This document shows, one piece after another, positions 109-17,879 of a DNA stretch of 22,338 nt; within the stretch, counting starts at the first letter, position 1; every line of letters starts with the position of its first letter. Origin of the DNA: a virus. The DNA lies in the UHGV virus genome UHGV-0114988; one strand, written 5' to 3'. Below the pieces are notes generated by a model. The model ran no database searches, was not told where the DNA came from, and saw only the letters and a list, made by a program, of their open reading frames with translations. A program made the position numbers and the translations under genes.

Positions 109-109
109 T

Positions 110-208: not shown

Positions 209-283
209 CACTCGAATCTCCCGAATCAGTTTGCTAAAATCAAACACACTTTCCCCTTTGACTTTTCCAGAGTCAGGAAACAC

Positions 284-318
284 AAAACCCCGCTTGCAGC
301 CAACAAACGGGGTTTTTA
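284..318. terminator. Hairpin AAACCCCG...CGGGGTTT flanked by T-runs on both strands (bidirectional terminator-like)
   Basis: Inverted repeat with about 8-bp stem and 15-nt loop; TTTTT follows on + strand and TTTTGTGTTT on - strand. Sits between the endolysin stop and the small ORF/Rz. Confidence 0.3.
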
Positions 319-406
319 CTTTTATTCACTTAGTTTTTGTCAGTTCGCAGGATTTCGTGTTATCCGTCCGTGTGAGAAAACCGCATTTTTCAGCAAAATA
401 TTCTGC

Positions 407-940: not shown

Positions 941-944
941 CTAA

Positions 945-1160
945 TCACTCTCCCCGGGCAGCCTTGCGACGGTCCTCTTTAATTTTGAAATACAGATTCG
1001 TCAGGTATGTCAGGAACCCCAGACACAGGCTCCCCAAAACCCCGATAGCAGCCCACTGTGACGGAGTAACCTGATCCAACCACTGTAGAAACCAGTAACC
1101 CGCACTGCCCGCAGAAGTACCATAGGCTATGCCCGTTGATATTTTTTCCATCTGATACAT
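945..1160 (-). CDS. S: Class II holin, phage 21 S21-like pinholin (71 aa) with dual-start motif
   Basis: [31 protein letters not shown]...[13 protein letters not shown] closely resembles S21 as recalled. Met1 and Met4 give the holin/antiholin dual-start arrangement. Sits immediately upstream of the endolysin. Confidence 0.85.
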
Positions 1161-1236
1161 ATCCCCGCCCCGACAGACCTGTGCTACCGGAAATAAAAAA
1201 GGCCATCAGTGTTTTACTGATGGCCCTGCCCCGCCG

Positions 1237-1527
1237 TTACAGCATTGTGCCCGGTTCGGGTTGTGTGTCTGTCATATCCGTCACCGGTGACTCCGGCTGA
1301 ATATCACCATTTTCCGTGGTGACATCTTCCGCCTGTGGTTCCGGAAGCAGTTCCGGGGATGGTTCCGGCTGTGCACCAAGCAATTCATCCAGAATGGCAT
1401 CCACTTCTGCATCAAGACGCGCCTCAAGGTTCTGCCGAAGTTGCTGTTTCAGTGCGCTCCGGACTTCTTCAGAGCGCAGGACTTCCTTCACTGCCTCAGC
1501 AGTGACCAGCGATTTTATTTCTGACAT
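1237..1527 (-). CDS. Hypothetical acidic, Pro/Glu-rich protein (96 aa from internal ATG of track ORF 1237..1701)
   Basis: The track ORF begins with an implausible Cys-rich extension; the internal Met (MSEIKSLVTAEAVKEVL...) gives a compact gene between the nanS-p-like gene and the holin. No recognisable domain. Confidence 0.4.
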   Translation of the reverse strand: MSEIKSLVTAEAVKEVLRSEEVRSALKQQLRQNLEARLDAEVDAILDELLGAQPEPSPELLPEPQAEDVTTENGDIQPESPVTDMTDTQPEPGTML

Positions 1528-1564
1528 AGGATTTTCTCGTTGAAAGGGGTTGTCAAGAAAGTGA

Positions 1565-1747
1565 CTACGGAATGAGCGGATCTTCGGGTTTGCTTCCGGC
1601 TGACTGACTGGCGCTGATTTTCTCTGCGGCCCTTTTATCAATCTGCCTGCGCCAGAAATCGCGCACTGCCCTGTACCCACCCGAAAGAAGATACAGCACA
1701 CAGACCGCCGTACAGAAGTACAGCATCACCTGATGAACAAATGTCAT
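1565..1747 (-). CDS. Hypothetical small membrane protein (60 aa)
   Basis: ATG ORF with an N-terminal hydrophobic helix (LYFCTAVCVLYLLSGG) and a charged C-terminus, in the late operon between the esterase gene and the holin. Confidence 0.35.
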   Translation of the reverse strand: MTFVHQVMLYFCTAVCVLYLLSGGYRAVRDFWRRQIDKRAAEKISASQSAGSKPEDPLIP

Positions 1748-1843
1748 AGTTTCTTACCGTTATGGTTGACAATGAGAACTGTTTTCATTTAAAAACCGAT
1801 ATACGAAAGCATCTTTTCTTTACATTCTCCATTGGGATTACCT

Positions 1844-1880
1844 CCGCCAGCTTCCGTTCCTGCCGCTGGCGGCTTTTTTT
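1844..1880 (+). terminator. Hairpin (CCGCCAGC...GCTGGCGG) followed by TTTTTTT on + strand
   Basis: 8-bp GC-rich stem with a large 13-nt loop and a 7-T run; oriented against the minus-strand late genes. Confidence 0.3.
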
Positions 1881-1885
1881 GCCGG

Positions 1886-3877
1886 TTATGATGATGCCCG
1901 GCTTTCGTTAACTTTGACTGTGACCGTATCAAGCAGTACCGGATACGTCGCTTTTGCCCCCGTGATATCTGTCAGCGTCAGCGTATCTGCTGTAAAGCCA
2001 TCATTTGTCCACATCACCAGGTCAAACGCAGACTGCTCTGTATCATCAATCACCGGCACCACTTTTTCGCTGTTATTTCCCGCAAAGCGGAAAACAACTG
2101 TATGCCAGTTATGGTCAAATGCCCCAAATGTGCCCAGTTGCGCATTCGACTCCCCCTTGTGGTACATCAGATTCAGATTTGATGCATCCGTCTGAAGGAA
2201 GAAGGACGCCAGCATGCTGTTTGCTGTCGCGCCTGACGCCCACTGCGACACCGGCCAGTACAGACCAAAGACAAACTGACCGTTAACCAGTTCGACACCC
2301 TCCGGGATCTTAAACCGCACGGCAATTTCACCTCCCTTACTGAGAAGATTTTTTGCCTCCTCCACCGCAACAGTACGGAACATCTTCCAGGAGGTCAGTT
2401 TACCCGGCTGTTTTTCCAGTCGCAGCGCCTTCCTGCCACTGTCATCCGTCACAGTGCCTTTACCACCGGACGCATTCCACTGCTGCTCTGTCCATACACC
2501 ACTGCCACTGTTCGCATCATATCCGGCCACCATTCTTGTTACGGCTTCAGTATGACCGCCTGCAGAAGTACCTGCACCCTGCTGTTGCGTCGGACCCGCA
2601 GAGCCAGACTGTGCATCCCCCGTGGAGGCTGGCGTGGTCGCCAGCGGTGCAGACTGCCCGCTCAGGAACGGCAGCAAACGCCCGGCTCGCACCAGTATCT
2701 CTCCTGCCAGCCGATCTGAAACAATGCCTCTTCGCGCCCAGGAGCTGAAGTGCGTTTTACGATCGGCTGTCGTCCAGTTACCATTACTGCGTGACGCGGC
2801 ACCATAGTATCCCGCCGTGATAATGTCCGGATCTTCTGACGGCTCGTTTGTCGGCACATTCGCACCATGCTCATCCGTCATCAACGGCACAAAGTGAATA
2901 TTCTGCGCCGCCTTGCCTTTATAGCCTCCGTAAACCGCCTCATACTGCACTGCATACTTCGCCTTCCAGTCGTACGTGGTGTCACCGCAAATCCACGGGA
3001 CGCCGGACGTTGTCCCGCCAATACACTGGTCTGCAATATCTGCCAAGTCTGCACGGTATTTATTTACCATGGCAAGAAAAAGTGCATTGTGCTCTGCATG
3101 TCTCCCCGAACTGACATCTTTTTCCCCCTGCATCCAGATCACCGACAACAGCACGTTTTTCGGATTTTTCTTCAGGGCTGCACGCGTTCTGCTGACCAGG
3201 TCACGATACAACGGTTTATCCACCCCCCACAGGGAAGAGCCCGCTGTCGCACCCGACGCCTCATTAAACGCGCCCTCTGCTCCCGCAGTAAATCCCGAAT
3301 CGCCACGTCCACACGGGACAAGAAGGATCCCCGCACGGGCAGGCATAAACGGCAGCAGTTTTTTGGCCACATGCAGGGCATGCCCCACACAGCCATACTG
3401 CCCTTTATTGAGGTCTGCTTTCGGGTGATTCAGATTACTCACGTCCTGCACATCATGCAGACAATGGTCTGCAGGAATAATGTCGTTATATGCACAGGCC
3501 GCACCGCCCGGTGTCACCGTGCTGCGACGCGCCAGTTGCTTAATACGCGGGTCAGGACGATCATACGTATCCGGCAGCGGCAGCCCCTCGCCAAAAGACA
3601 TCGAGTTGGACTGCCCGGCCAGCGCAATGACAAAGTAATATTCCGGTTCGCTGGTGGTGCTGATAACTGTGCCTTCTCCATCCGACGGCTTCACCACCAC
3701 AGGTGTGGTGACATTACCTTCTGCGACAATCGCCTGAATAAGTGCTGCGCCATCATCCGTATACGAAGAAAACGGCCCGCCGTATGGTTGCCATCCTTCA
3801 CGAATTTTTTGAGCAAGCGCATCCGCAAGGTCTGACGGCGATGCCGCCCTGACCACGTCATAGTGTTTAAATGCCAT
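1886..3877 (-). CDS. nanS-p: NanS-p-like prophage sialate 9-O-acetylesterase (SGNH/SASA-type hydrolase), 663 aa
   Basis: GQSN catalytic-serine motif (YFVIALAGQSNSMSFGE) and an N-terminal segment resembling the DUF1737-type region of EHEC prophage NanS-p proteins, from memory. Strong GGGAGG RBS before the ATG at 3877. Occupies the position downstream of Q/tRNA as in Stx-type phages. Confidence 0.75.
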   Translation of the reverse strand: MAFKHYDVVRAASPSDLADALAQKIREGWQPYGGPFSSYTDDGAALIQAIVAEGNVTTPVVVKPSDGEGTVISTTSEPEYYFVIALAGQSNSMSFGEGLPLPDTYDRPDPRIKQLARRSTVTPGGAACAYNDIIPADHCLHDVQDVSNLNHPKADLNKGQYGCVGHALHVAKKLLPFMPARAGILLVPCGRGDSGFTAGAEGAFNEASGATAGSSLWGVDKPLYRDLVSRTRAALKKNPKNVLLSVIWMQGEKDVSSGRHAEHNALFLAMVNKYRADLADIADQCIGGTTSGVPWICGDTTYDWKAKYAVQYEAVYGGYKGKAAQNIHFVPLMTDEHGANVPTNEPSEDPDIITAGYYGAASRSNGNWTTADRKTHFSSWARRGIVSDRLAGEILVRAGRLLPFLSGQSAPLATTPASTGDAQSGSAGPTQQQGAGTSAGGHTEAVTRMVAGYDANSGSGVWTEQQWNASGGKGTVTDDSGRKALRLEKQPGKLTSWKMFRTVAVEEAKNLLSKGGEIAVRFKIPEGVELVNGQFVFGLYWPVSQWASGATANSMLASFFLQTDASNLNLMYHKGESNAQLGTFGAFDHNWHTVVFRFAGNNSEKVVPVIDDTEQSAFDLVMWTNDGFTADTLTLTDITGAKATYPVLLDTVTVKVNESRASS

Positions 3878-4074
3878 GAATCCTCCCGGCCGGGATAATG
3901 TTGTGAGTCAGATAAGGGGCGGGCTGAAGTCCGGAAGTTACAGGACAATGACAGAAGGAAGACTACAGCCCGCAATACGAAAAAGGCCGCGCAGTTGCGC
4001 AGAGTGATTACTGTCGGGTATTATTCGCCAGCTGAAAAATTGATTACTTCACGTTTTGTTGTTTATTCCTTGCT

Positions 4075-4103
4075 GCCCGCGTCTCCCGGCGCGGGCTTTT
4101 TTT
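4075..4103 (+). terminator. Intrinsic-terminator-like hairpin (GCCCGCG-N8-CGCGGGC) plus TTTTTTT on + strand
   Basis: 7-bp GC stem, 8-nt loop and 7-T tract read directly; no U-tract on the minus strand. Confidence 0.4.
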
Positions 4104-4442
4104 GCATGTAAAAAGGCTCCTGCGATGAGGAGCCTGGATATATGCCTAATCTCTGTATACAGCATGATGCCGGGTGCCTCCCGGTGAGTTCAGTATCAGC
4201 ACCTGAACCCGCACCAGATAAGGGATATAACCAACCACCTGTCGCTGATATGCCCCTCCGCACAGGGGGATTCACCATGCCAGTTTCTTTTAACAAATAC
4301 TCAGTCTGACAGGCAACTGTCAACTGACTGAATTGTGAGACATTTAAAATTTTCGGGGCATGACTGATACCCGGCTAACCACCTGATGCTTCCTTTTTTA
4401 GCAACAAACAGGTCCACCAAAGTGAGACAGAAAAAATAAGTG

Positions 4443-4519
4443 TGGCGCGTTGTACTGGATTCGAACCAGTGACCGATTGCTTAGAAGGCAATTGCTCTGT
4501 CCGGCTGAGCTAACAACGC
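4443..4519 (-). tRNA. tRNA-Arg (anticodon UCU), 77 nt
   Basis: Minus-strand sequence GCGTTGTTAGCTCAGCCGGACAGAGCAATTGCCTTCTAAGCAATCGGTCACTGGTTCGAATCCAGTACAACGCGCCA folds as a cloverleaf: 7-bp acceptor stem, anticodon stem ATTGC/GCAAT with loop CTTCTAA, T-arm ACTGG-TTCGAAT-CCAGT, and an encoded CCA. Confidence 0.85.
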
Positions 4520-4630
4520 ATGAAGTTTTCTGTAATCATCCTCGTTTGGTAACTGCCACTGGCTGACACTGAACCAGTGCGATGTCATGTTTTTCTTTCC
4601 TGTTTTATTAATTTTTCCCCAGCAGAAGAC

Positions 4631-4660
4631 AAGAAAAAAGGTTCCGGTGTTATCGGAACC
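4631..4660 (-). terminator. Minus-strand hairpin (GGTTCCG-N7-CGGAACC) followed by TTTTTTCTT; candidate tR'-like terminator or pause structure
   Basis: Perfect 7-bp stem with a U-tract on the minus strand, 30-60 nt downstream of the Q stop codon. Confidence 0.4.
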
Positions 4661-4679
4661 TTTCAGCAGTAAGCATACA

Positions 4680-4685
4680 ATTATA
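4680..4685 (-). promoter_or_regulatory. Consensus -10 hexamer TATAAT on minus strand just downstream of Q (candidate late promoter pR' -10 / Q-utilisation region)
   Basis: TATAAT read on the minus strand 5-10 nt after the Q stop. No convincing -35 was found, so this is tentative. Confidence 0.25.
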
Positions 4686-4689
4686 GACG

Positions 4690-5112
4690 TTATAACCATA
4701 ACATATTTTTTTGTGCGCACACAACCCTTTCAGGTAGTACAACTTCAGGATCCATATCCAACCTTACTCCCTGCAGAGTCAGAGCTCCTTCCAGAAATGC
4801 TTCAGACGCCTTCAGGGATGTCCGTACGCTAAAATGACTACGGTCTATCGCCTCAGCAATTGCACGCGTTGAGAGGCCGCCTATAAAACGTAACCCCAAG
4901 ATCAGCAAATCATCGTACGGGCAAACCATACTCATATGCGCGATGCAGGTATCAATCACCGCTCCATCCTCGTCAGAGCAACCGGGTTTGCCACTGTCGG
5001 TTACGTCCCGGGAAGTAACCGACATTGAGGGCCAGTCAACCATTGAACAGTATTCCTCGCTCGCCGCCCATCGCCCCCACCGCTCCAGAACAAGTTGCAT
5101 ATCTCTACGCAT
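4690..5112 (-). CDS. Q: Late-gene antiterminator Q (phage 21/933W-type Q family)
   Basis: N-terminus MRRDMQLVLERWGRWAA resembles 21/933W-type Q proteins as recalled. Position is immediately upstream of the tRNA/late lysis region. Confidence 0.65.
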   Translation of the reverse strand: MRRDMQLVLERWGRWAASEEYCSMVDWPSMSVTSRDVTDSGKPGCSDEDGAVIDTCIAHMSMVCPYDDLLILGLRFIGGLSTRAIAEAIDRSHFSVRTSLKASEAFLEGALTLQGVRLDMDPEVVLPERVVCAQKNMLWL

Positions 5113-5165
5113 AACGCTGGCCTCTACGTTTTGCTACGAAAAAATTTTCTGAGAACTACGTCTGT

Positions 5166-5185
5166 TTATCCGTGGGTGTGGATAA
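5166..5185. promoter_or_regulatory. Inverted pair of DnaA-box-like 9-mers (TTATCCGTG and TGTGGATAA, the latter the reverse complement of consensus TTATCCACA)
   Basis: Read directly: TTTATCCGTGGGTGTGGATAACG. One perfect and one 7/9 match to the DnaA box consensus. Confidence 0.4.
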
Positions 5186-5204
5186 CGCAGTTCCGATCCG
5201 CATA

Positions 5205-5224
5205 TTGCATGTATCAACATGCAA
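5205..5224. promoter_or_regulatory. Perfect palindrome TTGCATG-N6-CATGCAA (candidate dimeric regulator site)
   Basis: 7-bp inverted arms with a 6-bp spacer, between the DnaA-box pair and the iterons. Confidence 0.3.
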
Positions 5225-5242
5225 AAAGTTGCTAATTCGGAG

Positions 5243-5433
5243 TGGAACCACCTGCCCCCACCTGGAACCACCTTTTCCTAACCTTTCCCTCAATCGACTT
5301 ATATATATATATGGGGTTTCTAGTAGAAAGGCGGTTCCAGTGGTTCCAGTAGTTCCGCCCCGCTTGCCACAAGGTCTGCAAGGTGGAACCACCTTCTCTT
5401 TTAGGTGGTTCCGCATGGTTCCAGCGGTTCCCA
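5243..5433. repeat. Iteron array with central (AT)7 tract; candidate replication origin
   Basis: The 11-mer TGGAACCACCT occurs directly at 5243, 5263 and 5384, and inverted (AGGTGGTTCC) at 5403. Three tandem 9-mers GGTTCCAGT lie at 5333-5356, with further GGTTCC units at 5417-5433. The tract TATATATATATAT lies at about 5298-5312. The array sits immediately 3' of the primase-helicase gene and overlaps its last codons. Confidence 0.55.
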
Positions 5434-7587
5434 AACCTTGCATTTTTTCCCCCCAATTCGCCTTTGGGCACGCTTATACCCGCAATTTTGCAAAACATTA
5501 CTAATTCGCATTTCTTCGCGTTTTCCGATGCGGTCAGGATTTAGCCCAATCGCATCACGCAAAACATCACTTGCGCGTAAAAATTCGCAATTTCGCGGAA
5601 GTTCATTAGTCATCAGGTCGGGCGTGTCGAGCCATTTCTCTACCGTTTCAAGCCAAGCATCCTTGATGGTGTACTGTTCATGGACACTCGCTGCCAGTTG
5701 TTCAGCCTCACGGAACTGGATACCCCCCAGACGCTGAAACACCTCACGAGCCTCAGCCCAAAGTAAAAGGAGATCTCTTTTTATCGCTTTCACGTCGACT
5801 TTCGACACTTCCACGGGGAGCCAGCGACGGTTACCAGTCTTGTCCGCAAGGAATTCGTCCTCATTGGTGGTACCAACGAACAGCAGGCGACGAGGAAACT
5901 GGGTGGCGAACTCCCGGTATTTCGGGATCCAGTTTTCGTGAGTACGCGTCACAAACGCTTTGATTGACTCCAGCTCTTTGGTATTAAGTCCGCGCAGTTC
6001 ACCAATCTCTGCCACCAGCCGACCACGCATTTTTCGAGCGAGATCATCGTCTTTTTCGGCAAAAGAGATTTCAGTAAAAAACGCAGGATCAGGGCTCAGT
6101 GCCTCCACTCCGGAAGACTTACCGCAGCCCTGCGGACCAACGAGGATCGGCACCATATCCGCTTTGATGCCTGGCTCCAGTACTCGCCCCGCCAACGCGG
6201 TCCACATGTACATAGACACCGCACGGGTATAAGGCGTGTCGGCGGTACCGAAGTGCGTATGGTAGAAACATTCGATGCGCGGCACGCCATCCCACTCCAG
6301 TCCGTTCAGCCAGGTGATCGCTGAATCGAATGGTTGTTCATCGGCTGCAAGTAACACCACATCGCGAATAAGTTCACGGCCAACAGGTTTAAATCCCCGC
6401 TTTTCCATCGTGATGCGCAGGCGCGCATAATCCGCATCGGTGAATGCCCGCCATTGTCCGGATCCTGCCGGGGCAAACATGATTTCGTCGCGGAACTGGT
6501 CAAAGCGAATATCGATGTCCACAAAATCAGGACGTACTACTGCTTTGGCTGCGTTGCTGATGGTTGCCTCGATACGCCCCCATTTATCACGCTCGAAAGC
6601 AGGCAGCGGTAAAGGTTCCGCCACTTCGATGCTGGTCAGATCTTCGAAATCGTCGTTGCGGATCCCGATGGCATTCAGGAAATCTCCGTCATCACGATGC
6701 GCGCAACTGGCATGCAGGCATTTAAAATGCCCCTGCTCAAAGCCTGCGGTTCCCGCAGGAAAATAAACTGTGCTTGTTGGATCGCCTCCGCTACTGTGGC
6801 CGTCTTCAAACGGACAGCGGATATATCGTTCACCGTTTGCACCATCCAGCAGCGTCCAGCCATTGGCATCAAGATATTCAGCTGTATCATCCGTCGCGCC
6901 GGGCGTGAATGCTGAACGGTCGCGCATCTTCGTGTTGCCCGCTTCGGTGGTTACCGACACAGGGAGTTGTTCAGCCAGGCGCTGCCACAGCGTTTCAAGC
7001 TGCTCACCTGTAATAGCCGGAGGTTCATCCGGCAAACCACCGTCCCATTCAATACGCGCGCCGCTGCTGTGCGTACCACAGGCAACGAACTGCTGCCCGT
7101 TCGCCAGCAACTCGATAATGCCCATATCCCCCGCCAGGCGATGGATACGCTTACGGAAATCACCATCAACGGCCAGCAGATACAGACACTTATTACTGTT
7201 TGCTCGCCAGCGTCGCGGCGGCGACTCACCCAGAAGTTGCACAAGTGTTTTGCGAATATCTGCCTGAATGTCTTCATCTTCGCTATCGCAGTCCAGCGCC
7301 AGCCAGCCATGGCCTGTACGCACGCAGATGCCATAATCCGGTTCATTCGACCAGCGGGCAAAATCATGCTCAGTAACAACATGCCCGGTCCATTGAGCAA
7401 TACCGGTGACCTGGCGGTCCCGGTTATAGCGACTCGGCGTCTTACCCAACGCTTTCAATTTACTATCAGGGGATATGGTCGCACTGGGGTTACATACAAC
7501 TGGGAGAAGATGAGCAGTCCGCCCCAATACCAGGTCGAAATGAAACCACTCATCAGGCGTAGCTCCCCATGTTTTGCTATCGGACAT
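5401..7587 (-). CDS. Replication primase-helicase: N-terminal PrimPol/AEP-like domain fused to a VirE / P4-alpha-type Walker-A NTPase domain, 728 aa
   Basis: Acidic DxD-type motif (WLALDCDSEDED) in the N-terminal half. Walker A ILVGPQGCGKSSG and surrounding region resemble phage/plasmid primase P4-family C-terminal (VirE-like) domains. AAGGTG RBS; ATG at 7587 directly follows the cro-like stop. Confidence 0.8.
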   Translation of the reverse strand: MSDSKTWGATPDEWFHFDLVLGRTAHLLPVVCNPSATISPDSKLKALGKTPSRYNRDRQVTGIAQWTGHVVTEHDFARWSNEPDYGICVRTGHGWLALDCDSEDEDIQADIRKTLVQLLGESPPRRWRANSNKCLYLLAVDGDFRKRIHRLAGDMGIIELLANGQQFVACGTHSSGARIEWDGGLPDEPPAITGEQLETLWQRLAEQLPVSVTTEAGNTKMRDRSAFTPGATDDTAEYLDANGWTLLDGANGERYIRCPFEDGHSSGGDPTSTVYFPAGTAGFEQGHFKCLHASCAHRDDGDFLNAIGIRNDDFEDLTSIEVAEPLPLPAFERDKWGRIEATISNAAKAVVRPDFVDIDIRFDQFRDEIMFAPAGSGQWRAFTDADYARLRITMEKRGFKPVGRELIRDVVLLAADEQPFDSAITWLNGLEWDGVPRIECFYHTHFGTADTPYTRAVSMYMWTALAGRVLEPGIKADMVPILVGPQGCGKSSGVEALSPDPAFFTEISFAEKDDDLARKMRGRLVAEIGELRGLNTKELESIKAFVTRTHENWIPKYREFATQFPRRLLFVGTTNEDEFLADKTGNRRWLPVEVSKVDVKAIKRDLLLLWAEAREVFQRLGGIQFREAEQLAASVHEQYTIKDAWLETVEKWLDTPDLMTNELPRNCEFLRASDVLRDAIGLNPDRIGKREEMRISNVLQNCGYKRAQRRIGGKKCKVWEPLEPCGTT

Positions 7588-7590
7588 GGG

Positions 7591-7791
7591 TTACACCTTT
7601 TGTCTAGCTGTCACTTCCTGAAAAAGTTTTTCTATCGCACGTACTGTAGAAAAGCGAGGGTCAGAATGAACCCCGGTAAGAAGCCGACTAATAGAAGACT
7701 GCTTCACGCCTGCAATTTCGGCAATTTGGTTTTGGGTATACCCTGAATCAATCAAGCTTTTGACCATCTCTTGTGGTGTTAGTCCGGACAT
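7591..7791 (-). CDS. Cro-like small HTH DNA-binding protein (66 aa)
   Basis: HTH-like segment YTQNQIAEIAGVKQSSISRLLTG. Divergent from the CI-like repressor, first gene of the minus-strand early operon, GGAGA RBS. Confidence 0.6.
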   Translation of the reverse strand: MSGLTPQEMVKSLIDSGYTQNQIAEIAGVKQSSISRLLTGVHSDPRFSTVRAIEKLFQEVTARQKV

Positions 7792-7932: not shown

Positions 7933-8607
7933 ATGATTGATACTACCGATATCCTTTCTCAAAACATCAAGTACCTGATGGACAAAGCCAAGATAAGCTC
8001 GATAACTGAGCTGGCACGTCGGTTACAGCTGAACCAACCAACGCTACACAGGCTGGTATCAGGAGAGGTGAAAGATCCGAAATACGCAACGTTAAAGCAG
8101 ATCGCCGACTACTTCCACGTGTCACCAATAGACTTGGCAGAAAGGAGCCTTCAAGAAATGGAGAAAGAGGACGCGACAGGTATAAAAACGTATATTTCTC
8201 TTAGGTTTAATAAAGTACCTGTTTTGGGAAACACTCAGCTAGGCGTTGGAGGACTTTGGAGCGACACCCAATATTCAGTAGGTAGCAGTGATGGTTTCAT
8301 ATACTGGCCGACAAAGGATGAAGATGCATACGCCCTGAAATGTGTTGGTGATTCAATGATGCCTAGAATCAAAGAGGGGGAGTTCGTAATCGTCGAACCC
8401 AACCACGACTACACTCCTGGTGATGAAGTACTTGTGGTTACCCGGGACGGTGAGGTCATGGTTAAAACCTTCTTGTTCGAACGCGATGGCCTGTTCCATC
8501 TAATGTCTGTAAATGAAGATCATCCACCAGTCAGAGTACCACGCGAAAACATTGAAAAAATCCATTACGTGGCGGGGATCGCCAAATCCGCGCTACGTAT
8601 GTACTAA
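7933..8607 (+). CDS. cI: CI-like prophage repressor: N-terminal HTH plus C-terminal LexA/S24-type autopeptidase domain
   Basis: N-terminal HTH (SITELARRLQLNQPTLHRLVSG); C-terminal GDSMMP (Ser nucleophile) and VMVKTF (Lys) consistent with an S24 Ser-Lys dyad; 224 aa. Confidence 0.85.
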   Translation: MIDTTDILSQNIKYLMDKAKISSITELARRLQLNQPTLHRLVSGEVKDPKYATLKQIADYFHVSPIDLAERSLQEMEKEDATGIKTYISLRFNKVPVLGNTQLGVGGLWSDTQYSVGSSDGFIYWPTKDEDAYALKCVGDSMMPRIKEGEFVIVEPNHDYTPGDEVLVVTRDGEVMVKTFLFERDGLFHLMSVNEDHPPVRVPRENIEKIHYVAGIAKSALRMY

Positions 8608-9025: not shown

Positions 9026-9550
9026 TCATCTGGCAGGTTGTAACGGTGCAGGAATTTTGCCACTGACTTCTATATTTCGGGGAAATTTATATTCAGCGGA
9101 GCATTTATGACACTTGAGAATTTTATAAGCGGCATTAGAAGTATGGTATTGAAGTATAGACTTCATACCCGACTCATAGCATGTAGTACAAAGATAATGA
9201 GGCTTGAACTCAGGATCGTCAGTAGGCTTCAGTACATAGACCACCGTATTGGTAATCGGGTGGTACATTTCATAGTTCATTTTCTCACTATCCCAATCCT
9301 GTTTCTTTTCCAGAAGGGATTCGAGTTCAACAATGCGCTGTTTAGCTTCGTTCAAAAGCTCCGTTAGTGCGAATTGTCCAGTACGCGCATCAATTAGTTT
9401 ATCAAGTAGATCGATAGTTTTACTTTTAACATTGTAATCCACCTGCAACGCATTAACTTCTTTTGCTAAATCAACAGCACCTTTCAAAGCACCACCAGCA
9501 CTAGTGGCCGCCTCAGTTATACGCCGTACAAGTCCTTTTTCTTCAGACAT
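9026..9550 (-). CDS. Hypothetical coiled-coil protein with C-terminal Cys4 zinc ribbon (174 aa); moron-like gene opposed to the early-left operon
   Basis: ATG ORF; N-terminal 100 aa predicted helical/coiled-coil; CxxC...CxxC (CTTCYE...CHKCSAEY) at the C-terminus. No family recognised. Confidence 0.55.
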   Translation of the reverse strand: MSEEKGLVRRITEAATSAGGALKGAVDLAKEVNALQVDYNVKSKTIDLLDKLIDARTGQFALTELLNEAKQRIVELESLLEKKQDWDSEKMNYEMYHPITNTVVYVLKPTDDPEFKPHYLCTTCYESGMKSILQYHTSNAAYKILKCHKCSAEYKFPRNIEVSGKIPAPLQPAR

Positions 9551-10814: not shown

Positions 10815-12116
10815 ATGCCAGACGTTCACGCACAACTTTCTCCATCATCAGCGCATCGATGGATGCGCTGCCCAGGAAGTCTGGCGCTGGAGGCCACACA
10901 ACCGGATAAAGAAACAACTTTTGCAATCGAGGGCACTGCAGCGCACGCGCTTGCTGAAAAAGTTCTACGAAACAGGCAAAGCCACCCGGAACACTACGCC
11001 GGATGCAATGTTTCTATGTTTCTCGGCTCATACCCCCTTCGCGAAAATCCTGATGATACATCTGGCCCACAGGTGGATGATGAAATGGTCGAAGCCGTTG
11101 GGCGGTATGTTGATACGGTCTGGACTCTTGCACAGAATAATGAACTATTGGTTGAACAACGTGTTGATTTCTCACATATAACGGGGGTGGAAGAATCTTT
11201 CGGAACTGCCGACGGCATAATCATCGCTGGTAACGAATTACAAATCCACGACCTGAAATATGGCAAAGGCGTCCGCATTGATGCAGAACAAAATGAGCAA
11301 CTACAACTGTATGCTCTGGGTGCGCTCGAACAATTCAGCATGCTGTATGACTTTGAGACTGTAAGATTATTTATTCACCAGCCAAGGCTCAACCACGTTT
11401 CAGAATGGTCATTAACCGTACAGGAACTTCAGTCTTTCGGTGAACGGGCACAGGAGGCCGCAACCAGTGCGATCCTTGTTCTCAATATTGCTGAATGCGA
11501 AGGCATTGAGACACTACCGCTGGAAAACTTCATACCTGGAGAAAAACAGTGCCGCTTCTGTAAAGCAAAAGCTATTTGCACTGCCCAGAAAATGCAGCAT
11601 TTACAAACAGCGGCCAGCGATTTTGAAGATCTGACAAAGCCTGTCAGCGAAATAATCACCAATGCCAGCGCACGTGTACCTCTGTTAACCATTGAGCAGC
11701 TTGCGGAGATCTATAGCCAGGCCGACTTTATTGAATCCTGGCTAAAGGCAGTACGAGACCGGGTTCACAATGAACTCAATGCCGGACATCCGGTACCGGG
11801 GTTTAAACTGGTAACAGGAAAACAAGGTAACCGGGCCTGGAGTGATGAAGAGGCAGCTCGCGCACTTCTGAAGGACCAGTTCAGGTACAAAACTGAAGAA
11901 GTATTCGACTTTAAACTTATTAGCCCCACAAAAGCCGAAAAACTTATCAAAAAGGCCAGTCCGCGCCGTTGGTCAAAAGTCGAGGCACTGATAACACGAG
12001 CTGATGGTAAACCCACCGTCGTTCCCGAGTCAGACCCACGCCCCGCACTCAATATTAACCCTATAAATGATTTCGACGACGTATCCGACGATACGCTAAC
12101 CGCAGACCTCATCTGA
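10815..12116 (+). CDS. PD-(D/E)XK nuclease, Cas4/RecB-like phage exonuclease with C-terminal Cys cluster (family often annotated DUF2800)
   Basis: N-terminal [15 protein letters not shown]-x-K-type motif IHDLKYGKG, Cys cluster [10 protein letters not shown] suggesting an Fe-S or Zn site. 433 aa. Family assignment from memory. Confidence 0.7.
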
Positions 12117-12131
12117 TTTAAGGAAATCCCC

Positions 12132-12680
12132 ATGAAACTGAAGCTGAACAATGTTCGTCTGGCTTTCCCGTCTCTGTTTGAAGCTAAAACTGTAAACGGC
12201 GAAGGCGATCCACGTTTCTCCGCAGTATTTTTAATGTCACCCAAACACCCACAACTGGAAGAAATCCGTAAAGCTATGAAGCAGGTAGCGAAGGAAAAAT
12301 GGGGAGAGAAGTGGGAGTCCATTTATAACCAGCTGGAGAAAAAACTCAATCTGTGCCTGCATGATGGTGATGAAAAAGCAGAGTATGAAGGCTTCCCCGG
12401 TAATTTCTTCCTGAATGCTGCTAACAAAGCGCGCCCTGCTGTTCTTGATCGCGATCGTTCGCCACTGATTCAGGCTGATGGACGTCCCTATGCAGGGTGC
12501 TATGTAAACGCCGTTATCGATATCTGGGCACAGGACAATAATTTCGGTAAACGCATTAATGCCTCACTCGGCGGAGTCCAGTTCCTGCGAGACGGCGATG
12601 CATTCGCTGGCGGCGGAGTGGCAAGCGCTGACGATTTCGACGATATCAGCGAAGGTGCTGATGCTGAAGCACTGATTTAA
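12132..12680 (+). CDS. Phage ssDNA-binding-like protein (DUF2815-type), 182 aa, acidic C-terminal tail
   Basis: N-terminus MKLKLNNVRLAFPSLFEAK resembles DUF2815 proteins that accompany family-A polymerases in phage replication modules (recalled). Acidic tail DDFDDISEGADAEALI is SSB-like. Confidence 0.6.
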   Translation: MKLKLNNVRLAFPSLFEAKTVNGEGDPRFSAVFLMSPKHPQLEEIRKAMKQVAKEKWGEKWESIYNQLEKKLNLCLHDGDEKAEYEGFPGNFFLNAANKARPAVLDRDRSPLIQADGRPYAGCYVNAVIDIWAQDNNFGKRINASLGGVQFLRDGDAFAGGGVASADDFDDISEGADAEALI

Positions 12681-12694
12681 TCCTGCTTCACAGA

Positions 12695-12720
12695 CGCCCG
12701 GTTAAACGCCGGGTGTTTTT
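12695..12720 (+). terminator. Intrinsic terminator after the SSB-like gene (CCCGG-loop-CCGGG plus TTTTT)
   Basis: Stem of 5-7 bp followed by a T5 run, 15 nt after the stop codon. Confidence 0.4.
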
Positions 12721-13063
12721 GCAAAGGGGAATATGCCCAGAGCTACCTGTATTGTTCTGGTTAGCACCCAGTCGCCCTGCTACCCCGATATTGACTCATC
12801 GCCCCCTTCCGGTTTATGCTCACCGAATCTCCCAAATGGAGATCGGGATTTGCAACCCGGAATTGTTAGGGGCGACACCAGACGCGCCAGCGTCTTTTTT
12901 ATTGTCGCAAGCTTTGCCACGTTCGCATTATGGCGGGCTGGCGGGGGCGCTTCGGCGCGCCGGTTTCCTCTAACGCCGGTATTGCAAACCTCGTCAGTTC
13001 GCCACCCATATGAGATTTGCAACTCAGTGGTGGCGGTGAATTTCACCGTTAGAGGTAACTGTG

Positions 13064-13828
13064 ATGGCAACTCAGCTCATCCCCGTTTTCAACGGCGCTA
13101 TCGCCAACGAAACCACCCTGCTCTGCAATGCTCGCGATCTGCACGCATTCCTTGGGGTAGGGAAAGTGTTTGCAGCGTGGATTACATCACGAATTGCAGA
13201 CTATGAATTCGTTGAAAATCAGGATTATATCGTAACGTTTTCCAAAACTGGAAAGCGTAAAAATGTTCTTTGTAAGGACTACCACCTCACTCTCGATACA
13301 GCCAAAGAACTGGCGATGGTGGAGCGCAACGAAAAAGGCCGCCAGATCCGCCGATACTTCATCGAGTGCGAAAAGAAACTTCGCCAGCAATCCTCCACGA
13401 TACTGGCGCCACACAGGGAGTGTCTGCCGAAGATGGTTTACCATCACCGGAGCAAATACAATCCGTACAGGGCTTATGCATGGGACGGAGAGAAAAGCGT
13501 TTACGTCGGGTGCTATCCGACTGTGGATGAGGCTGTCGCTGCTCAGGAACGCTTCTACCGGAACGGCAGCACGAAACGCATTCAGAAGGCGCAGACAGCA
13601 GTCAGTGACGCAGAGAAGGAAATGTTCATCAACAATCTCCGCGCCGTCTGCCATAACTTCCGGCGCATCAATGAAATCTGGCGGGCGCAGTTAATGCCTG
13701 CTCTCGAAAAAATGGATTCGAAACTGGTTTACCAGCTGCATGACCGCTTCAGCGACAGCATGTGCATTCTGCCGACCATAGAAGACCGCATCGGCAGATA
13801 TATTCCGCCGTCACAGCTTCCACACTAA
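13064..13828 (+). CDS. AntA-family antirepressor-like protein with uncharacterised C-terminal domain (254 aa from ATG; track start is GTG at 13061)
   Basis: N-terminal region (ARDLHAFLGVGKVFAAWITSRIADYEFVENQDY ... YHLTLDTAKELAMVERNEKGRQIRRYFIECEKKL) resembles the AntA/AntB N-terminal domain as recalled. AGAGG RBS. Confidence 0.6.
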   Translation: MATQLIPVFNGAIANETTLLCNARDLHAFLGVGKVFAAWITSRIADYEFVENQDYIVTFSKTGKRKNVLCKDYHLTLDTAKELAMVERNEKGRQIRRYFIECEKKLRQQSSTILAPHRECLPKMVYHHRSKYNPYRAYAWDGEKSVYVGCYPTVDEAVAAQERFYRNGSTKRIQKAQTAVSDAEKEMFINNLRAVCHNFRRINEIWRAQLMPALEKMDSKLVYQLHDRFSDSMCILPTIEDRIGRYIPPSQLPH

Positions 13829-13839
13829 TTCCACAATTC

Positions 13840-13866
13840 GCCCCTGCTCAGTCAGGGGCTTTTTAT
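13840..13866 (+). terminator. Intrinsic terminator after the antA-like gene (GCCCCTG-N6-CAGGGGC plus TTTTTA)
   Basis: 7-bp stem and T-run read directly, 12 nt after the stop. Confidence 0.45.
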
Positions 13867-13943
13867 CACCGTTTAATTTACGGAGGACTTCGTTTTGTCT
13901 GAAAACACTGATTTAAAAAAAGCAAAGTATCAGACCTGTAATA

Positions 13944-14543
13944 TCATTTGGCCTGATACTTACTTGCATCTATTTTCAATAATTGGGAATTATACTTCTT
14001 TATAACGCCTCGTCCCGGAAAAAGAAACCAAAACATAAAAGCCATCCATATACACAGCAGCATTAAAACAGCGCTCATTCCTATAAAAACAGCGCCATAA
14101 TTTAACGACCAACAGAAAAATATCAAGCCATCAGCCAAATAAAAGATAGAAACAACTTTAGAACACCAGCGACATCGTTTGTATTTACCTTTGTAGCGTA
14201 TAAAGAATCTATCGTATTTACACTGAATATGGGGTGCTAAATAACCCCACTGCCAAAACGGCATTTTCAATTCAGAATACGTTCTGACATAAATAACTAA
14301 CGTTCTTAATTTCTGGCTACTTATACCTAATATACTTTTTTTAACTTCTCTTTTGATTTCTGCCTTCATAAACTCTACATCAGAAGGCTCAATATGCTCC
14401 GGATAATTCTTCAGAATATGCGAGAATTTTGTTGTTTTCGGTAAAAACCAACTAGCATCTTTAAATAACTTATAAACACCGACTGGTGCAGTTATGGCTG
14501 AAATTATGACTCCAACAAGTGAGATAATATCTTTCGTATCCAT
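13944..14543 (-). CDS. Hypothetical AT-rich membrane protein (about 199 aa from ATG at 14543; track ORF starts at a TTG at 14570)
   Basis: Markedly AT-rich codon usage relative to its neighbours; predicted TM helix at the N-terminus (IISLVGVIISAITAPVGVY) and two at the C-terminus; Lys/Arg/Cys-rich central region. Opposite strand to the flanking replication genes. Confidence 0.5.
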   Translation of the reverse strand: MDTKDIISLVGVIISAITAPVGVYKLFKDASWFLPKTTKFSHILKNYPEHIEPSDVEFMKAEIKREVKKSILGISSQKLRTLVIYVRTYSELKMPFWQWGYLAPHIQCKYDRFFIRYKGKYKRCRWCSKVVSIFYLADGLIFFCWSLNYGAVFIGMSAVLMLLCIWMAFMFWFLFPGRGVIKKYNSQLLKIDASKYQAK

Positions 14544-14569
14544 GTAGCTAATTCTTCGGAGTAAATACA

Positions 14570-16633
14570 ATGTCCAATATACTATGGGGCGACCTGGAAA
14601 CTTTCTGTGAAATATCTATCAATAATGGCACCCATGCGTATGCCGAAGGCGTTGAAGTGATGCTGTTCGCATGGGCTATCAACGACGGGCCAGTAAACGT
14701 GTGGGATATCACTGCCGGTGGTGGTATTCCACACGGCTTATACGAAGCAATCGCAGCCCCTGAAACCCTGCTTTATTTTCATAACTCTCACTTCGACCGC
14801 ACCGTCCTGCGTTATGCAATGCCGCGCCTGGCACCGCCAGTCGAACGTTGGCGCGACACAATGGTGCAGGCGCTGGCGCACGGTCTCCCGGGGTCTCTGG
14901 GGGAACTCTGCGAAGTACTAGGCGTCCCGCAAGACAAAGCGAAGGACAAAGAAGGTAAAGCGCTGATCCAGCTGTTCTGTAAGCCACGCCCGAAAAACAG
15001 CAAACTGCGCCGGGCCACCAGCAAAACCCACCCGGAAGAATGGCGGCGCTTTGTTGCTTACGCCGGACTGGATATCGAGGCAATGCGCGAAGTCTGTAAA
15101 CGTCTGCCGAAGTGGAATTATCAGGGGACAGAACTGGCGCTCTGGCATCGTGATCAGCAGATCAATGACCGGGGCGTCTGCATGGACGTGGAACTCGCAC
15201 GCGCTGCGATCGACGCGGTAGACCAGGAACAAAAGCGCCTGGCAAAGCGTACACAGGAAATGACTGATGGCGAAGTGCAGGCAGCCACACAACGAGACGC
15301 GTTGATTAAGCACATTGTTGAATCCTACGGTGTGGAGCTACCAGACATGCAACGCAGTACTCTGGAACGTCGTATTGCCGACCCCGATTTACCATCTGCC
15401 GTGAAAGAACTGCTGGCTATCCGCCTGCAGGCCAGTACTACCAGCACCAGTAAATACAAGGCACTGATGAAAGGCGTAAGCCACGACGGGCGCTTACGCG
15501 GTACGCTACAGTTCTGCGGGGCGTCACGTACCGGTCGTTGGGCCGGACGGCTATTCCAGCCCCAGAACCTTCCCCGCCCTTCACTCAAACAGGAACAAAT
15601 AGACGAAGGCATCGAAGCACTGAAAGCCGGATGTGCAGACCTGCTGTTTGACAATATCATGGAACTAACCAGTTCAGCGTTACGTGGCTGCATTATCGCG
15701 CCAACAGGCAAAAAGCTGGTGGTAAGTGACTTGTCGAACATTGAAGGCCGTATGCTGGCATGGCTGGCGGGAGAAAAATGGAAACTGAATGCATTCAGAG
15801 AGTACGACGCCGGGACGGGTCCGGACTTATATAAACTGGCGTATGCAAAAGCTTTCGATATTGCACCAGATGATGTTGATAAACACATGCGTCAGATCGG
15901 TAAAGTCATGGAACTCGGTCTGGGTTATGGTGGTGGTGTGTCGGCCTTCATCACTTTTGCACTGGTTTACGGTCTCGATCTCGACGAGCTGGCGAACGCC
16001 GCACTACCAAACATTCCCCGCGATGTTATCCGCGAGGCGAAAAGCTGGTACGACGAATCGGTTAAACGCAAGTCAACCTACGGGCTTTCTGAACGGATAT
16101 TTATCGCCTGCGACTCACTTAAACGTCTCTGGCGCAGGGCGCACCCGGCGACCTGCGATTTCTGGTACGAACTGGAGCGCACCGTCCGCACTGCAATCGC
16201 CACACCGCAAAAAACATTGTATTGCGGCTATCTTAAAATCCGCCGCGATGGCGCGTGGCTGCGCATACAGCTACCATCCGGACGCGCTGTATGCTACCCG
16301 TCTCCGGTTATCGAACAAGGGAATATCACCTACATGGGTGTTAACTCTTATTCGCGTAAATGGCAACGACTCAAAACCTACGGCGGAAAGCTGGTGGAGA
16401 ACGTCACCCAGGCGGCCGCCCGCGACGTTCTGGCCAGAAACATGCCGCTTATCGAAGATGCCGGTTACAGCATTGTGCTGACGGTACACGACGAGGTGAT
16501 CACCGAATCACCTGACACAGAAGATTTCAACGATAAAGCGCTTTCCGCGCTTCTCTCCACTAACCCCGAATGGGCGCCCGATATCCCACTGAACGCTGGC
16601 GGTTTTGAGGCGTACCACTACCGTAAGGATTAA
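14570..16633 (+). CDS. Family A DNA polymerase (T7/PolI-like) with 3'-5' exonuclease domain, 687 aa
   Basis: Exo motifs GDLETF and [12 protein letters not shown]; polymerase motif [16 protein letters not shown], motif [17 protein letters not shown], motif C LTVHDEVI. Confidence 0.9.
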
Positions 16634-16638
16634 CTCCT

Positions 16639-16854
16639 ATGTCATTTAAATACCGGGACAGTCCGCTTTATTACCGGGCTGCGAGGGAGGCTTTGCGACT
16701 TGAACAATCCGGCGAATATGACCGGGCAGCGAAGGTCTGGGCAAAAGCCAACCGCGAATCACATCACGAACTGAATCAGGAATGGAGTGAACGCAGATCT
16801 GATTTTTGCCTGATGCAGAATATGCGTGAAAAGCGTAAGGCGGTCGAAGAATGA
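16639..16854 (+). CDS. Hypothetical small protein (71 aa)
   Basis: ATG ORF tightly packed between the polymerase and the next gene (4-nt overlap). Confidence 0.4.
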   Translation: MSFKYRDSPLYYRAAREALRLEQSGEYDRAAKVWAKANRESHHELNQEWSERRSDFCLMQNMREKRKAVEE

Positions 16855-17150
16855 TCGTTTACGTTGCCGGGCCGATGAGCGGTTACGAGCAATTTAACCG
16901 CCCGGCCTTTCATTCCGCAGCAAAGAGGCTAACGGACAAGGGATATGTTGTGCTTAACCCCGCAACTTTACCCGATGGTTTGACACAGGCTCAGTACATG
17001 GACATCTGCCTCGCAATGCTTCGCTGTGCCGATACGATTTATATGCTCAAAGAGTGGGAGTACTCTGCCGGCGCACGTGCAGAAAACGCGTTGGCAGAGA
17101 AACTGGTATTGAATGTGCTTTTTGAAGAGTGGGATTCAGATGGCCTATGA
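16851..17150 (+). CDS. DUF4406-like (nucleoside 2-deoxyribosyltransferase-fold) phage protein, 99 aa
   Basis: N-terminal MIVYVAGPMSGYEQFNRPAF is typical of this family as recalled. Confidence 0.45.
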   Translation: MIVYVAGPMSGYEQFNRPAFHSAAKRLTDKGYVVLNPATLPDGLTQAQYMDICLAMLRCADTIYMLKEWEYSAGARAENALAEKLVLNVLFEEWDSDGL

Positions 17151-17409
17151 ACGTGAGAGCCTTATCGAAAAGCACCTCGTCGCTGAAGTGAAAAAGGCTG
17201 GCGGTGTGGCCTTTAAGTTCGTATCTCCCGGTCGCCGCTCGGTACCGGATCGCATTGTCCTGCTACCCGGCGGTCGCATCGTTTTCGTTGAATGTAAATC
17301 TCCCGGCAAGCCACCACGGCCTGACCAGTTGCGCGAACATAAACGTCTGCGAAAGCTGGGCTTTACCGTGGTGGTGCTGGATAGCAAGAACCTAGAGAGG
17401 ATATTGTGA
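17140..17409 (+). CDS. VRR-NUC-type small PD-(D/E)XK nuclease (about 89 aa from internal ATG of track ORF 17113..17409)
   Basis: Motif VPDRIVLLPGGRIVFVECK (D...E-x-K) within a roughly 90-aa protein. Confidence 0.55.
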   Translation: MAYERESLIEKHLVAEVKKAGGVAFKFVSPGRRSVPDRIVLLPGGRIVFVECKSPGKPPRPDQLREHKRLRKLGFTVVVLDSKNLERIL

Positions 17410-17546
17410 AAAAATCAGATGAACACTTACAGTTTAAATTACGGATCCCCCGCGCATTAGCGGAGGAGTTAAAGAAAACAGCAAAGAAAAATATGCGTTC
17501 AGTAAATGCAGAAATATTATTCAGACTAGCTAAAGACCTTAAGTAA
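17406..17546 (+). CDS. Arc-like ribbon-helix-helix repressor (46 aa, GTG start overlapping the upstream stop)
   Basis: FKLRIPRALAEELKKTAKKNMRSVNAEILFRL parallels the P22 Arc pattern (FNLRWPREVLDLVRKVAEENGRSVNSEIYQRV, recalled). Below the ORF-track cutoff and GTG-initiated, hence moderate confidence. Confidence 0.45.
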   Translation: MKKSDEHLQFKLRIPRALAEELKKTAKKNMRSVNAEILFRLAKDLK

Positions 17547-17564
17547 CAATTTCGTTACGGTACC

Positions 17565-17879
17565 TTATTTTTTCCCCAAACGATTTTCTACGAGTTCATG
17601 CAGCCTTTCTAAGAGTTCTGTGTTTTTTTCAATATTTTTGCCCCACTCATTAAGCAAAGATTCAGCTTCGCGTCCAAGCCCCATACCTTCAGCTTGGCGT
17701 AGATATAAAAACGCATGAGTATTCTGGCTTTCCAGCTTATTTATTGCAGGAAATGAAGACCTTAAGCGTTGAAGCACCTCTGCATTCAACGAACGACCGT
17801 TAGCACGGGCTGCATTCTCCAATAATTCTTTCAGTTCCGCAGGTAAACGGATCTTCATCTGCGCATCTTCACGACTCAT
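17565..17879 (-). CDS. Mnt/Arc-family ribbon-helix-helix repressor (104 aa)
   Basis: N-terminal KIRLPAELKELLENAARANGRSLNAEVLQRL is an Arc/Mnt-type RHH; length and C-terminal extension are Mnt-like. Divergent from the Rha-like antirepressor operon. Confidence 0.6.
   Translation of the reverse strand: MSREDAQMKIRLPAELKELLENAARANGRSLNAEVLQRLRSSFPAINKLESQNTHAFLYLRQAEGMGLGREAESLLNEWGKNIEKNTELLERLHELVENRLGKK

Follow-up and report, generated by a model that had tools for sequence, protein, structure and literature searches.

What is a membrane-protein gene doing on the opposite strand of a phage replication operon? The question is raised by the virus genome UHGV-0114988, represented here by a stretch of 22,338 nucleotides (the window, i.e., the whole stretch of DNA analysed), which comprises the early/replication arm of a temperate Escherichia coli phage. 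Near-identical prophages are located at yfhL, and some of them bear stx2a. Between the genes for a single-stranded-DNA-binding protein (SSB) and a family A DNA polymerase (PolA), the window contains an AT-rich gene that is oriented against its neighbours and encodes a membrane protein of 199 amino acids (aa) (Table 1). An original prediction, made from the letters of the window, had taken this gene for a horizontally acquired "moron" inserted into the operon, of the kind that often serves superinfection exclusion or abortive infection. Sequence comparison identifies the gene as a member of an uncharacterised family of proteins with three predicted transmembrane (TM) helices, linked to phrog_10579, that occupies a fixed slot in the replication module of temperate phages.

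The membrane gene is real, and its coding sequence is under purifying selection. We draw this conclusion because the comparison with the 68%-identical allele of the closest prophage (L003) gives 0.18 nonsynonymous (dN) and 0.57 synonymous (dS) substitutions per site and a dN/dS of 0.31, because the length of 199 aa is constant, because full-length homologues exist, and because an AlphaFold2 (AF2) model of the protein is confident. The open reading frame (ORF) first described, 13944–14570 (−), is a TTG-extended version of 208 aa. The ATG at 14543 is taken as the real start because all 12 close homologues (from Escherichia, Enterobacter, Klebsiella, and Citrobacter), none of which contains an insertion or deletion, have 199 aa and start at the same Met. 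This ATG and the ATG of PolA at 14570 lie on opposite strands and are separated by 27 bp, the distance given in the original prediction.

The predicted protein has a short N-terminus outside the inner membrane, a first helix (TM1, residues ~6–24), a basic, helical cytoplasmic domain (~25–125), a TM2–TM3 hairpin (~126–172), and a basic cytoplasmic C-terminal tail bearing a near-invariant P176...N185 motif. Specifically, hydropathy places the helices at ~6–24, ~126–144, and ~152–170, confirming the predicted arrangement of one N-terminal and two C-terminal helices. The middle segment of 101 residues is Lys/Arg-rich as anticipated (22 K/R vs 9 D/E), but not generally Cys-rich: cysteines C108, C124, and C127 are peculiar to the window allele and are not conserved in the family. 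Application of the positive-inside rule yields one topology, with the N-terminus out, in seven of seven family members analysed (five genera), and hydropathy and charge counts for the same seven members place almost all of the non-membrane mass in the cytoplasm. In close alleles, periplasmic exposure amounts to five N-terminal residues and a loop of 3–9 residues. The conserved residues of the family are likewise cytoplasmic (alignment A7, 32 sequences); in particular, P176 and N185, positioned just past TM3, are at least 90% conserved. The AF2 model calculated with 32 diverse homologues (pLDDT 88, pTM 0.68) contains TM1, a cytoplasmic domain of four helices and a short β-hairpin, the TM hairpin, and a short C-terminal helix. 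Calculation with 14 sequences gave a pLDDT of 58, and the resulting model was not used.

A search for close homologues recovered 13 proteins at E ≤ 0.01, and when 1.84 billion representative proteins were searched with a profile, only 33 clusters emerged at E ≤ 1e-3, with lengths of 190–260 aa except for a few fragments. Homology over the full length of the protein persists at ~20% identity; hhalign aligns the proteins that occupy the same slot in Serratia (probability 98.9, E 1e-17) and Morganella (probability 95.2, E 2.5e-8) from end to end. Among the related E. coli prophages, L003 carries a reversed 199-aa allele that is 68% identical to the window protein, and L004 and L006 carry a reversed 209-aa allele that is 22% identical and collinear. 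For the 209-aa allele, the match to phrog_10579 (PHROGs v4, function unknown) has an E value of 1.5e-107. Each of the 14 sequences in alignment A3 hits the same cluster at E ≤ 1, and the window protein does so at E 5e-4 over residues 38–192; phrog_10579 is a sequence cluster with no function attached, and the window protein is a distant member of it.

The gene order SSB, reversed family gene, PolA is found in Escherichia, Klebsiella aerogenes, Citrobacter, Serratia oryzae, and Morganella morganii, the PolA genes of the relatives outside Escherichia having 70–80% DNA identity. The same layout is present in 11 of the 11 IMG/VR contigs recovered in a scan for the close family. In the related E. 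coli prophages, the minus-strand gene always sits immediately upstream of the polymerase, and the starts of the two genes are 23–46 bp apart across relatives. Every public copy of the protein is annotated "hypothetical". The 209-aa allele is present, unannotated, in three E. coli phages, and one prophage that carries it has been recovered as phage vB_EcoM-611R5; a tblastn search of 50,697 phage records with the 199-aa protein gave no match. The RefSeq accessions of the family proteins, as well as the term "PDC-M36", are mentioned in no searchable paper, and papers on Eru-type Stx phages do not treat the SSB-PolA replication module.

The slot is fixed, and its content changes. The membrane gene is the least conserved DNA of the replication module: in the comparison with L003, dS is 0.57 for the membrane gene, 0.10 for SSB, 0.06 for PolA, and 0.02 for DUF2800. 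The value for the membrane gene is 6–28 times that of its flanks, indicating that old alleles reside within young flanks and have been swapped at a fixed slot. The first 150 bp of PolA are 92% identical to those of L003, and the remainder is 97–100% identical. Counting alleles in the 159 complete E. coli genomes that contain this PolA, we found the window allele in 7, the L003 allele in 13, and the 209-aa allele in 67. The membrane-gene family, which is old in the slot, is its commonest occupant. Other prophages have an empty slot (L015), a slot without any ORF of 50 aa or more (L011 and L012), or a slot filled with other cargo (L005, L010, L016, L018, and L019), namely unrelated genes that are often reversed and AT-rich (L010, L016, L018, and L019). 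In L005, the slot (2133–3108) contains a plus-strand gene for a putative nucleotide-modification protein of the Nmad5 family and a reversed gene for an 89-aa protein with two TM helices (GC content 0.40) that is unrelated to the 199-aa family.

The membrane gene also occurs where the replication genes have decayed or been lost. In L009 (Enterobacter sp. ECC-019), it lies without the other genes of the module at one end of an island of the CbtA/CbeA type, where homology extends from 39 bp past its stop codon to 59 bp into the former PolA. In L007 (Citrobacter arsenatis, 3912–7641), the reversed gene is intact at 199 aa, and the surrounding module is decayed, with PolA split into segments of 445 and 241 aa, SSB split into segments of 124 and 58 aa, and DUF2800 cut to 150 aa. 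Judged from these sequences and from the modules whose slot lacks it, the replication module does not need the membrane gene, and the membrane gene can persist without the module. The pattern is one of allele and cargo replacement at a fixed slot and not one of a single acquisition.

Sequence signals at both ends of the gene suggest that it constitutes its own transcription unit. Upstream, a 13-nt block (CCATAGTATATTG) contains a −10-like TATATT located 33 nt before the ATG and is invariant in the window, L003, L004, L005, L007, and L008. The sequence before the membrane gene overlaps the first ~20 codons of PolA, and the block falls within PolA codons 2–6. In the island copy L009, in which the start codon and the reading frame of PolA are destroyed, all 13 positions of the block are kept. 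This retention without coding constraint provides the best evidence for a promoter within the first polymerase codons, where we would place the promoter of the membrane gene. An extended −10 element at 14630–14622 was considered for the same role and dropped, being conserved in neither L003 nor L004. Downstream, a terminator-like hairpin spans the stop codon (inverted repeat I4; RNA folding energy −19.5 kcal/mol, z −3.2). Its stem is kept, with both arms changed, in L003, L007, L008, and L009, and its 5′ arm also codes for the conserved C-terminal residues KYQ. Two further terminator-like hairpins, one after SSB and one after antA, would be positioned to shield the membrane gene from upstream plus-strand transcription; the 5′ part of the hairpin after SSB, up to 12713, is common to L004 and L006 and absent from L003. 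As a putative reversed unit of its own, with a 3′ hairpin and an upstream block, the gene could therefore be expressed in a lysogen.

Distant members of the family outside the slot are found in neighbourhoods of the defence type. One distant member (L025), from a P4-like satellite, follows the candidate defence gene PDC-M36A (PADLOC E 1.8e-47) in the interval from psu to cII, and the hotspots of P4-like satellites carry anti-phage systems (PMC9122126). A second is located upstream of Q in a lambdoid prophage, with a dGTPase defence gene (E 5.5e-144), a methylase gene, and an HNH gene as neighbours; a third adjoins methylase and HATPase genes; a fourth is reversed inside a lambdoid Kil/anti-RecBCD operon; and a fifth is reversed beside DUF1367, near an integrase gene. 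On the far side of PolA, a TIR-domain gene (CAP12-PCTIR_TIR) separates the polymerase gene from the ANR regulator in L002 (6094–6855), L004 (4938–5699), and L026 (2093–2854), showing that at least two slots for cargo flank the polymerase in this module; in the window, nothing fills the PolA-ANR slot (16633 to 16639). In three loci, a larger gene on the same strand lies ~250–300 bp upstream of the family member (L021, 3469–4743; L022, 3475–4749; L025, 3260–4699). In L021 and L022, its product has 424 aa and belongs to no Pfam family; in L025, its product is PDC-M36A, with 479 aa. The two proteins are mutually unrelated, and a common upstream partner was rejected.

Because of the P4 hotspot, the dGTPase neighbour, the reversed placement in early operons, and the survival of the gene in a decayed prophage, we read the protein as one that acts in conflict between phages. 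The context tips the balance slightly towards an anti-phage role of some kind; for the fuller statement, that a membrane protein expressed in the lysogen from a cargo slot has this role, we regard the case as evenly poised. As to how such a protein would act, a membrane-damaging abortive mechanism, carried out by this one protein, is our tentative choice, and we lean towards it over a block of phage entry. Lysogen expression, the anti-phage role, and the mode of action, as we infer them, would combine as follows. The membrane protein would be produced in the lysogen, in which the early operon is repressed, and opposing transcription would run over its gene after prophage induction. The basic cytoplasmic helical domain of ~100 residues would sense or bind something from the infecting phage, and the TM hairpin, probably oligomeric, would then compromise the inner membrane.

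Several points weigh against this proposal. No homology to known exclusion, abortive-infection, or defence proteins was found. Scans of both strands revealed no convincing σ70 promoter for the membrane gene, the −35 element being poor. The old association of the gene with PolA, maintained across genera, could instead stem from a role connected with replication or with the control of replication. Some members (L021, L022, and L025) may need a partner that is absent from the window. Finally, the argument from defence neighbourhoods involves three to four loci and, as guilt by association, is weak.

The searches for known relatives were as follows. Nothing in Pfam reached threshold for any of the 32 diverse members; in PADLOC-DB v2, no match for the 13 close homologues (alignment A2) and three distant members was better than E 0.005, and none was consistent; and no relative of the 199-aa protein was found in PDB or BFVD. 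The matches to DUF2207_C, DUF4231, RTasSLATT, and FA_desaturase obtained in Pfam, PADLOC, and PHROG scans with the protein, the 13 close homologues, and the 32 diverse homologues are all sub-threshold, fall on the TM hairpin (that to RTasSLATT, on a short cytoplasmic helix), and were rejected; the one other match was to phrog_10579. A holin was rejected as well: the lysis genes of this prophage type are more than 10 kb away, in the other arm, and the matches to Pfam holins are noise (E 0.25).

Among characterised abortive systems, the nearest likenesses are of layout. RexB, SLATT proteins, and the TM effectors of P4 hotspots share with the window protein a TM hairpin combined with a cytoplasmic helical part, and the TM proteins of P4-hotspot systems have been read as suicide effectors (PMC9122126). 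The differences are substantial. An hhalign comparison with lambda RexB gave a probability of 0.1%. The RTasSLATT profile matches 3 of 13 members at E 0.02–0.08 (best 0.021; window protein 0.079) and covers a short cytoplasmic helix, and DUF4231 matches 3 of 32 members at E 0.024–0.082 (13.8 bits, vs a cut-off of 24.7), over the TM hairpin only. In the window and the loci examined, no nucleotide-generating or reverse-transcriptase (RT) sensor (SMODS, SLOG, or UG-type RT) is present. A second likeness is one of genetic position. Lambda sieB is a single prophage gene of ~190 aa that opposes an early operon (34482–35036, plus strand, among the leftward N, ral, and cIII genes of the pL operon), and, like SieB of lambda and P22, the window protein is presumed to be a lysogen-expressed, moron-like accessory product. 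The abortive phenotype of SieB is established. The two genes differ in their neighbours (N and ral vs a replication module), and their proteins differ in sequence: no member among the 32 matches the SieB family (PF14163) in Pfam even at E ≤ 10, and hhalign of A7 with lambda SieB gave a probability of 0.2%.

The alternative that survives best, although we consider it improbable, is superinfection exclusion, in which the inner-membrane protein would stop the DNA or ejection proteins of related phages from crossing and leave the cell unharmed. T4 Imm, P22 SieA, and HK97 gp15 block genome entry in just this way from the inner membrane. The window protein, as a small inner-membrane product of a prophage gene oriented for lysogen expression, would fit among them; its periplasmic loop varies from a few to more than 20 residues across the family, as expected for a specificity determinant, and many old alleles coexist at one slot. 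Imm, SieA, and gp15 are also small phage inner-membrane proteins with little periplasmic exposure. The window protein, however, has three TM helices and a cytoplasmic domain of 100 residues, and no homology to this group was found in Pfam, PHROG, and BFVD searches, the proteins not having been compared one by one; homology to Imm and to SieB is absent. Very little of the window protein faces the periplasm, and its conserved residues are cytoplasmic. Members of the family are also present in a P4 satellite hotspot and in a non-phage island, where the exclusion of close relatives makes little sense. We favour the abortive version over an entry block for these reasons, i.e., the cytoplasmic location of the conserved residues and of nearly all of the soluble mass, and the occurrence in the satellite and the island.

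Somewhat less probable still is a lysogenic-conversion factor that, like Bor or Lom, would alter the physiology, stress tolerance, or virulence of the host. A moron-like accessory gene that has been kept both by a decaying prophage and on a genomic island, and that matches no defence family, is compatible with such a factor. The neighbourhoods of the family, however, are of the defence type and not of the virulence type, hardly any of the protein is exposed at the surface or in the periplasm, and the swapping of alleles is a pattern typical of conflict genes.

The explanation that the original prediction had put forward, a foreign gene recently dropped into the replication operon of this prophage, now appears decidedly unlikely. 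It draws on the composition and orientation of the gene and on the rarity of its exact allele, which is present in only 7 of 5426 complete E. coli genomes. The composition is confirmed: the GC content of the membrane gene is 0.345, with 0.33 at third codon positions (GC3), vs 0.49–0.54 and 0.45–0.61, respectively, for the flanking genes (PolA, 0.544 and 0.577; antA, 0.513 and 0.609) and 0.499 for the window; GC contents of 0.333–0.36 in 300-bp segments across the gene are the lowest in the 22 kb. A recent arrival is largely refuted by synteny, since the family occupies the same slot in Klebsiella, Citrobacter, Serratia, and Morganella, i.e., in at least five genera with Escherichia. Moreover, AT-richness persists in every lineage: in all loci examined (the window and 12 others), family members are AT-rich relative to their surroundings (0.29–0.40 vs 0.41–0.54). 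The observation that had been named as decisive against a moron, a conserved operon context with normal composition in homologous prophages, is thus borne out in its first half, the conserved context, and not in its second. What remains of the moron is a compositionally foreign accessory gene on the opposite strand that is present or absent among similar phages.

The inserted DNA at this locus is a different element. The blastn breakpoints show that the extra DNA of the window relative to L003 is the P1/P7 immI-like antA cassette and not the membrane gene. A second copy of the cassette is present downstream of PolA in L001, and a 73%-identical variant is present in some IMG/VR contigs, and the cassette behaves as a mobile module. 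The original prediction had also mentioned, with little weight, a short TTG-initiated ORF. The ORF (13895–14005, plus strand, 36 codons) is present in the window, its start codon and ribosome-binding site lie within the end of the antA cassette, which L003 lacks, and in L003 and L008 stop codons interrupt its frame; we rejected it.

Equally unlikely is a function tied to replication, whereby the basic domain would tether replication to the membrane in the manner of phi29 p16.7, or whereby the gene and its promoter would act as a transcriptional-interference brake on PolA. The adjacency to PolA is tight and ancient, Lys and Arg are abundant in the middle domain, a candidate promoter lies in the first codons of PolA, and a −10-like site for PolA lies inside the membrane gene. 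On the other side, there are intact modules whose slot is empty or holds unrelated cargo, some family members have no polymerase in their vicinity, the gene remains intact where the replication genes have decayed, and its orientation is opposite to that of the genes that it would serve. The hairpin after SSB and the terminator after antA leave the source of PolA transcription in question, and a candidate promoter for PolA is the extended −10-like TGaGATAAT inside the membrane gene (14520–14528, plus strand). Codons 3–5 of PolA (14576–14584) read AAT ATA CTA, a string that is common to most enterobacterial relatives and that, on the opposite strand, forms the −10-like TATATT of the membrane gene. 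ATA (Ile) and CTA (Leu) are rare codons in E. coli.

A more speculative proposal, to which we assign very little credence, is that the protein is a very divergent, partner-less relative or mimic of ExbB, TolQ, MotA, and ZorA that would insert into or poison TolQR or ExbBD, the proton-driven machines of the host, or form a pentameric channel of its own, and so close an envelope route used by phages, with a switch between the face-to-face promoters of the membrane gene and PolA making exclusion and replication mutually exclusive. The order of elements is the same as in these stator proteins: TM1, a cytoplasmic domain of ~100 residues, a TM2–TM3 hairpin, and a tail with a conserved Pro ending TM3. 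Stator proteins are also the top Foldseek matches in PDB, although non-significant ones (E 0.9–2.2, TM-score 0.16–0.26). Against this, hhalign gave probabilities of 0.9% with TolQ and 0.2% with ExbB, none of the 32 members matches MotA_ExbB (PF01618), the TM helices of the AF2 model are of ordinary length, and the gene is monocistronic, with no adjacent gene of the ExbD, TolR, MotB, or ZorB type in the window or its relatives. The last alternative, an incidental ORF in AT-rich DNA that is itself functional (as an origin-unwinding region or an H-NS-bound silencer), has the lowest-GC stretch of the window and its place in the replication module in its favour and is in practice refuted by the dN/dS of 0.31, the maintenance of length and frame, the homology at ~20% identity, the AF2 model, the presence of only short, two-copy, chance-level repeats with no iteron array, and the status of the gene as the least conserved DNA of the module.

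If the anti-phage reading is true, the membrane gene represents an unannotated family of single-gene anti-phage systems that is absent from Pfam and PADLOC, and the junction between SSB and PolA joins the P2 and P4 hotspots as a predictable site of defence cargo. The same neighbourhood also holds the TIR-domain and Nmad5 genes. Members of the family are common among E. coli prophages, some of which are Stx2a-converting, and an anti-phage effect would be relevant to the influence of Stx prophages on the susceptibility of their hosts to phages. Should there be no such effect, the gene is an ordinary prophage accessory gene.

Table 1. Features of the slot and its surroundings in the window, in order of position.
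Feature	Coordinates	Strand	Basis
DUF2800 PD-(D/E)XK nuclease	10815–12116	+	
Enc34-type single-stranded-DNA-binding protein (SSB, DUF2815), left edge of slot	12132–12680	+	PF10991 E 2.4e-44; synteny
antA cassette, P1/P7 immI-like	12681–13902	+	blastn vs L003, Rfam, terminator predictions
Terminator-like hairpin after SSB	12692–12722	+	11-bp stem, −22.9 kcal/mol, then UUUUU
Promoter-like site in antA cassette	12791–12820	+	
a1/b1-like targets in antA cassette	12814–12863	+	below Rfam threshold
isrK-like RNA	12827–12900	+	Rfam
C4 antisense RNA	12926–13009	+	Rfam
AntA antirepressor	13061–13828	+	PF08346 E 1e-24
Intrinsic terminator after antA	13840–13859, then T-run	+	
Terminator-like hairpin spanning membrane-gene stop	13913–13961	−	arms 13961–13950 and 13936–13925, then 7-U run 13921–13915
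Membrane protein, coding sequence, 199 aa	13944–14543	−	ORF, homologue family, dN/dS, hydropathy/charge, AF2, alignment A7
Shine-Dalgarno-like GAAGAA	14557–14552	−	8 nt before ATG; GGAGGA or GAAGGG in homologues
Conserved block CCATAGTATATTG, candidate promoter with −10-like TATATT (14581–14576)	14575–14587	−	sequence comparison
Family A DNA polymerase (PolA), right edge of slot	14570–16633	+	PF00476 DNA_pol_A E 6.8e-14

Elsewhere in the window, a second AT-rich (GC ~0.40) ORF is encoded on the opposite strand (9026–9550, minus strand; 174 aa, no Pfam family), just downstream of a LexA-like repressor gene (7933–8607). Relatives have a 189-aa gene in its place (L008, 9789–10358; L020, 9864–10433). 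This ORF may be another lysogen-expressed accessory gene. Further towards the left end, the segment 4104–4519 (minus strand) comprises an STnc100 small RNA (4104–4309) and a tRNA (4446–4519), positioned between the ORF for the Q antiterminator (4690–5112) and a DUF1737/SASA-esterase/DUF6645 gene (1886–3877). No stx genes are present in this segment, and the near-identical prophage of strain 89-3156 (L001) has stx2a there. The polymerase gene of the latter prophage (15736–17798) is annotated as frameshifted.

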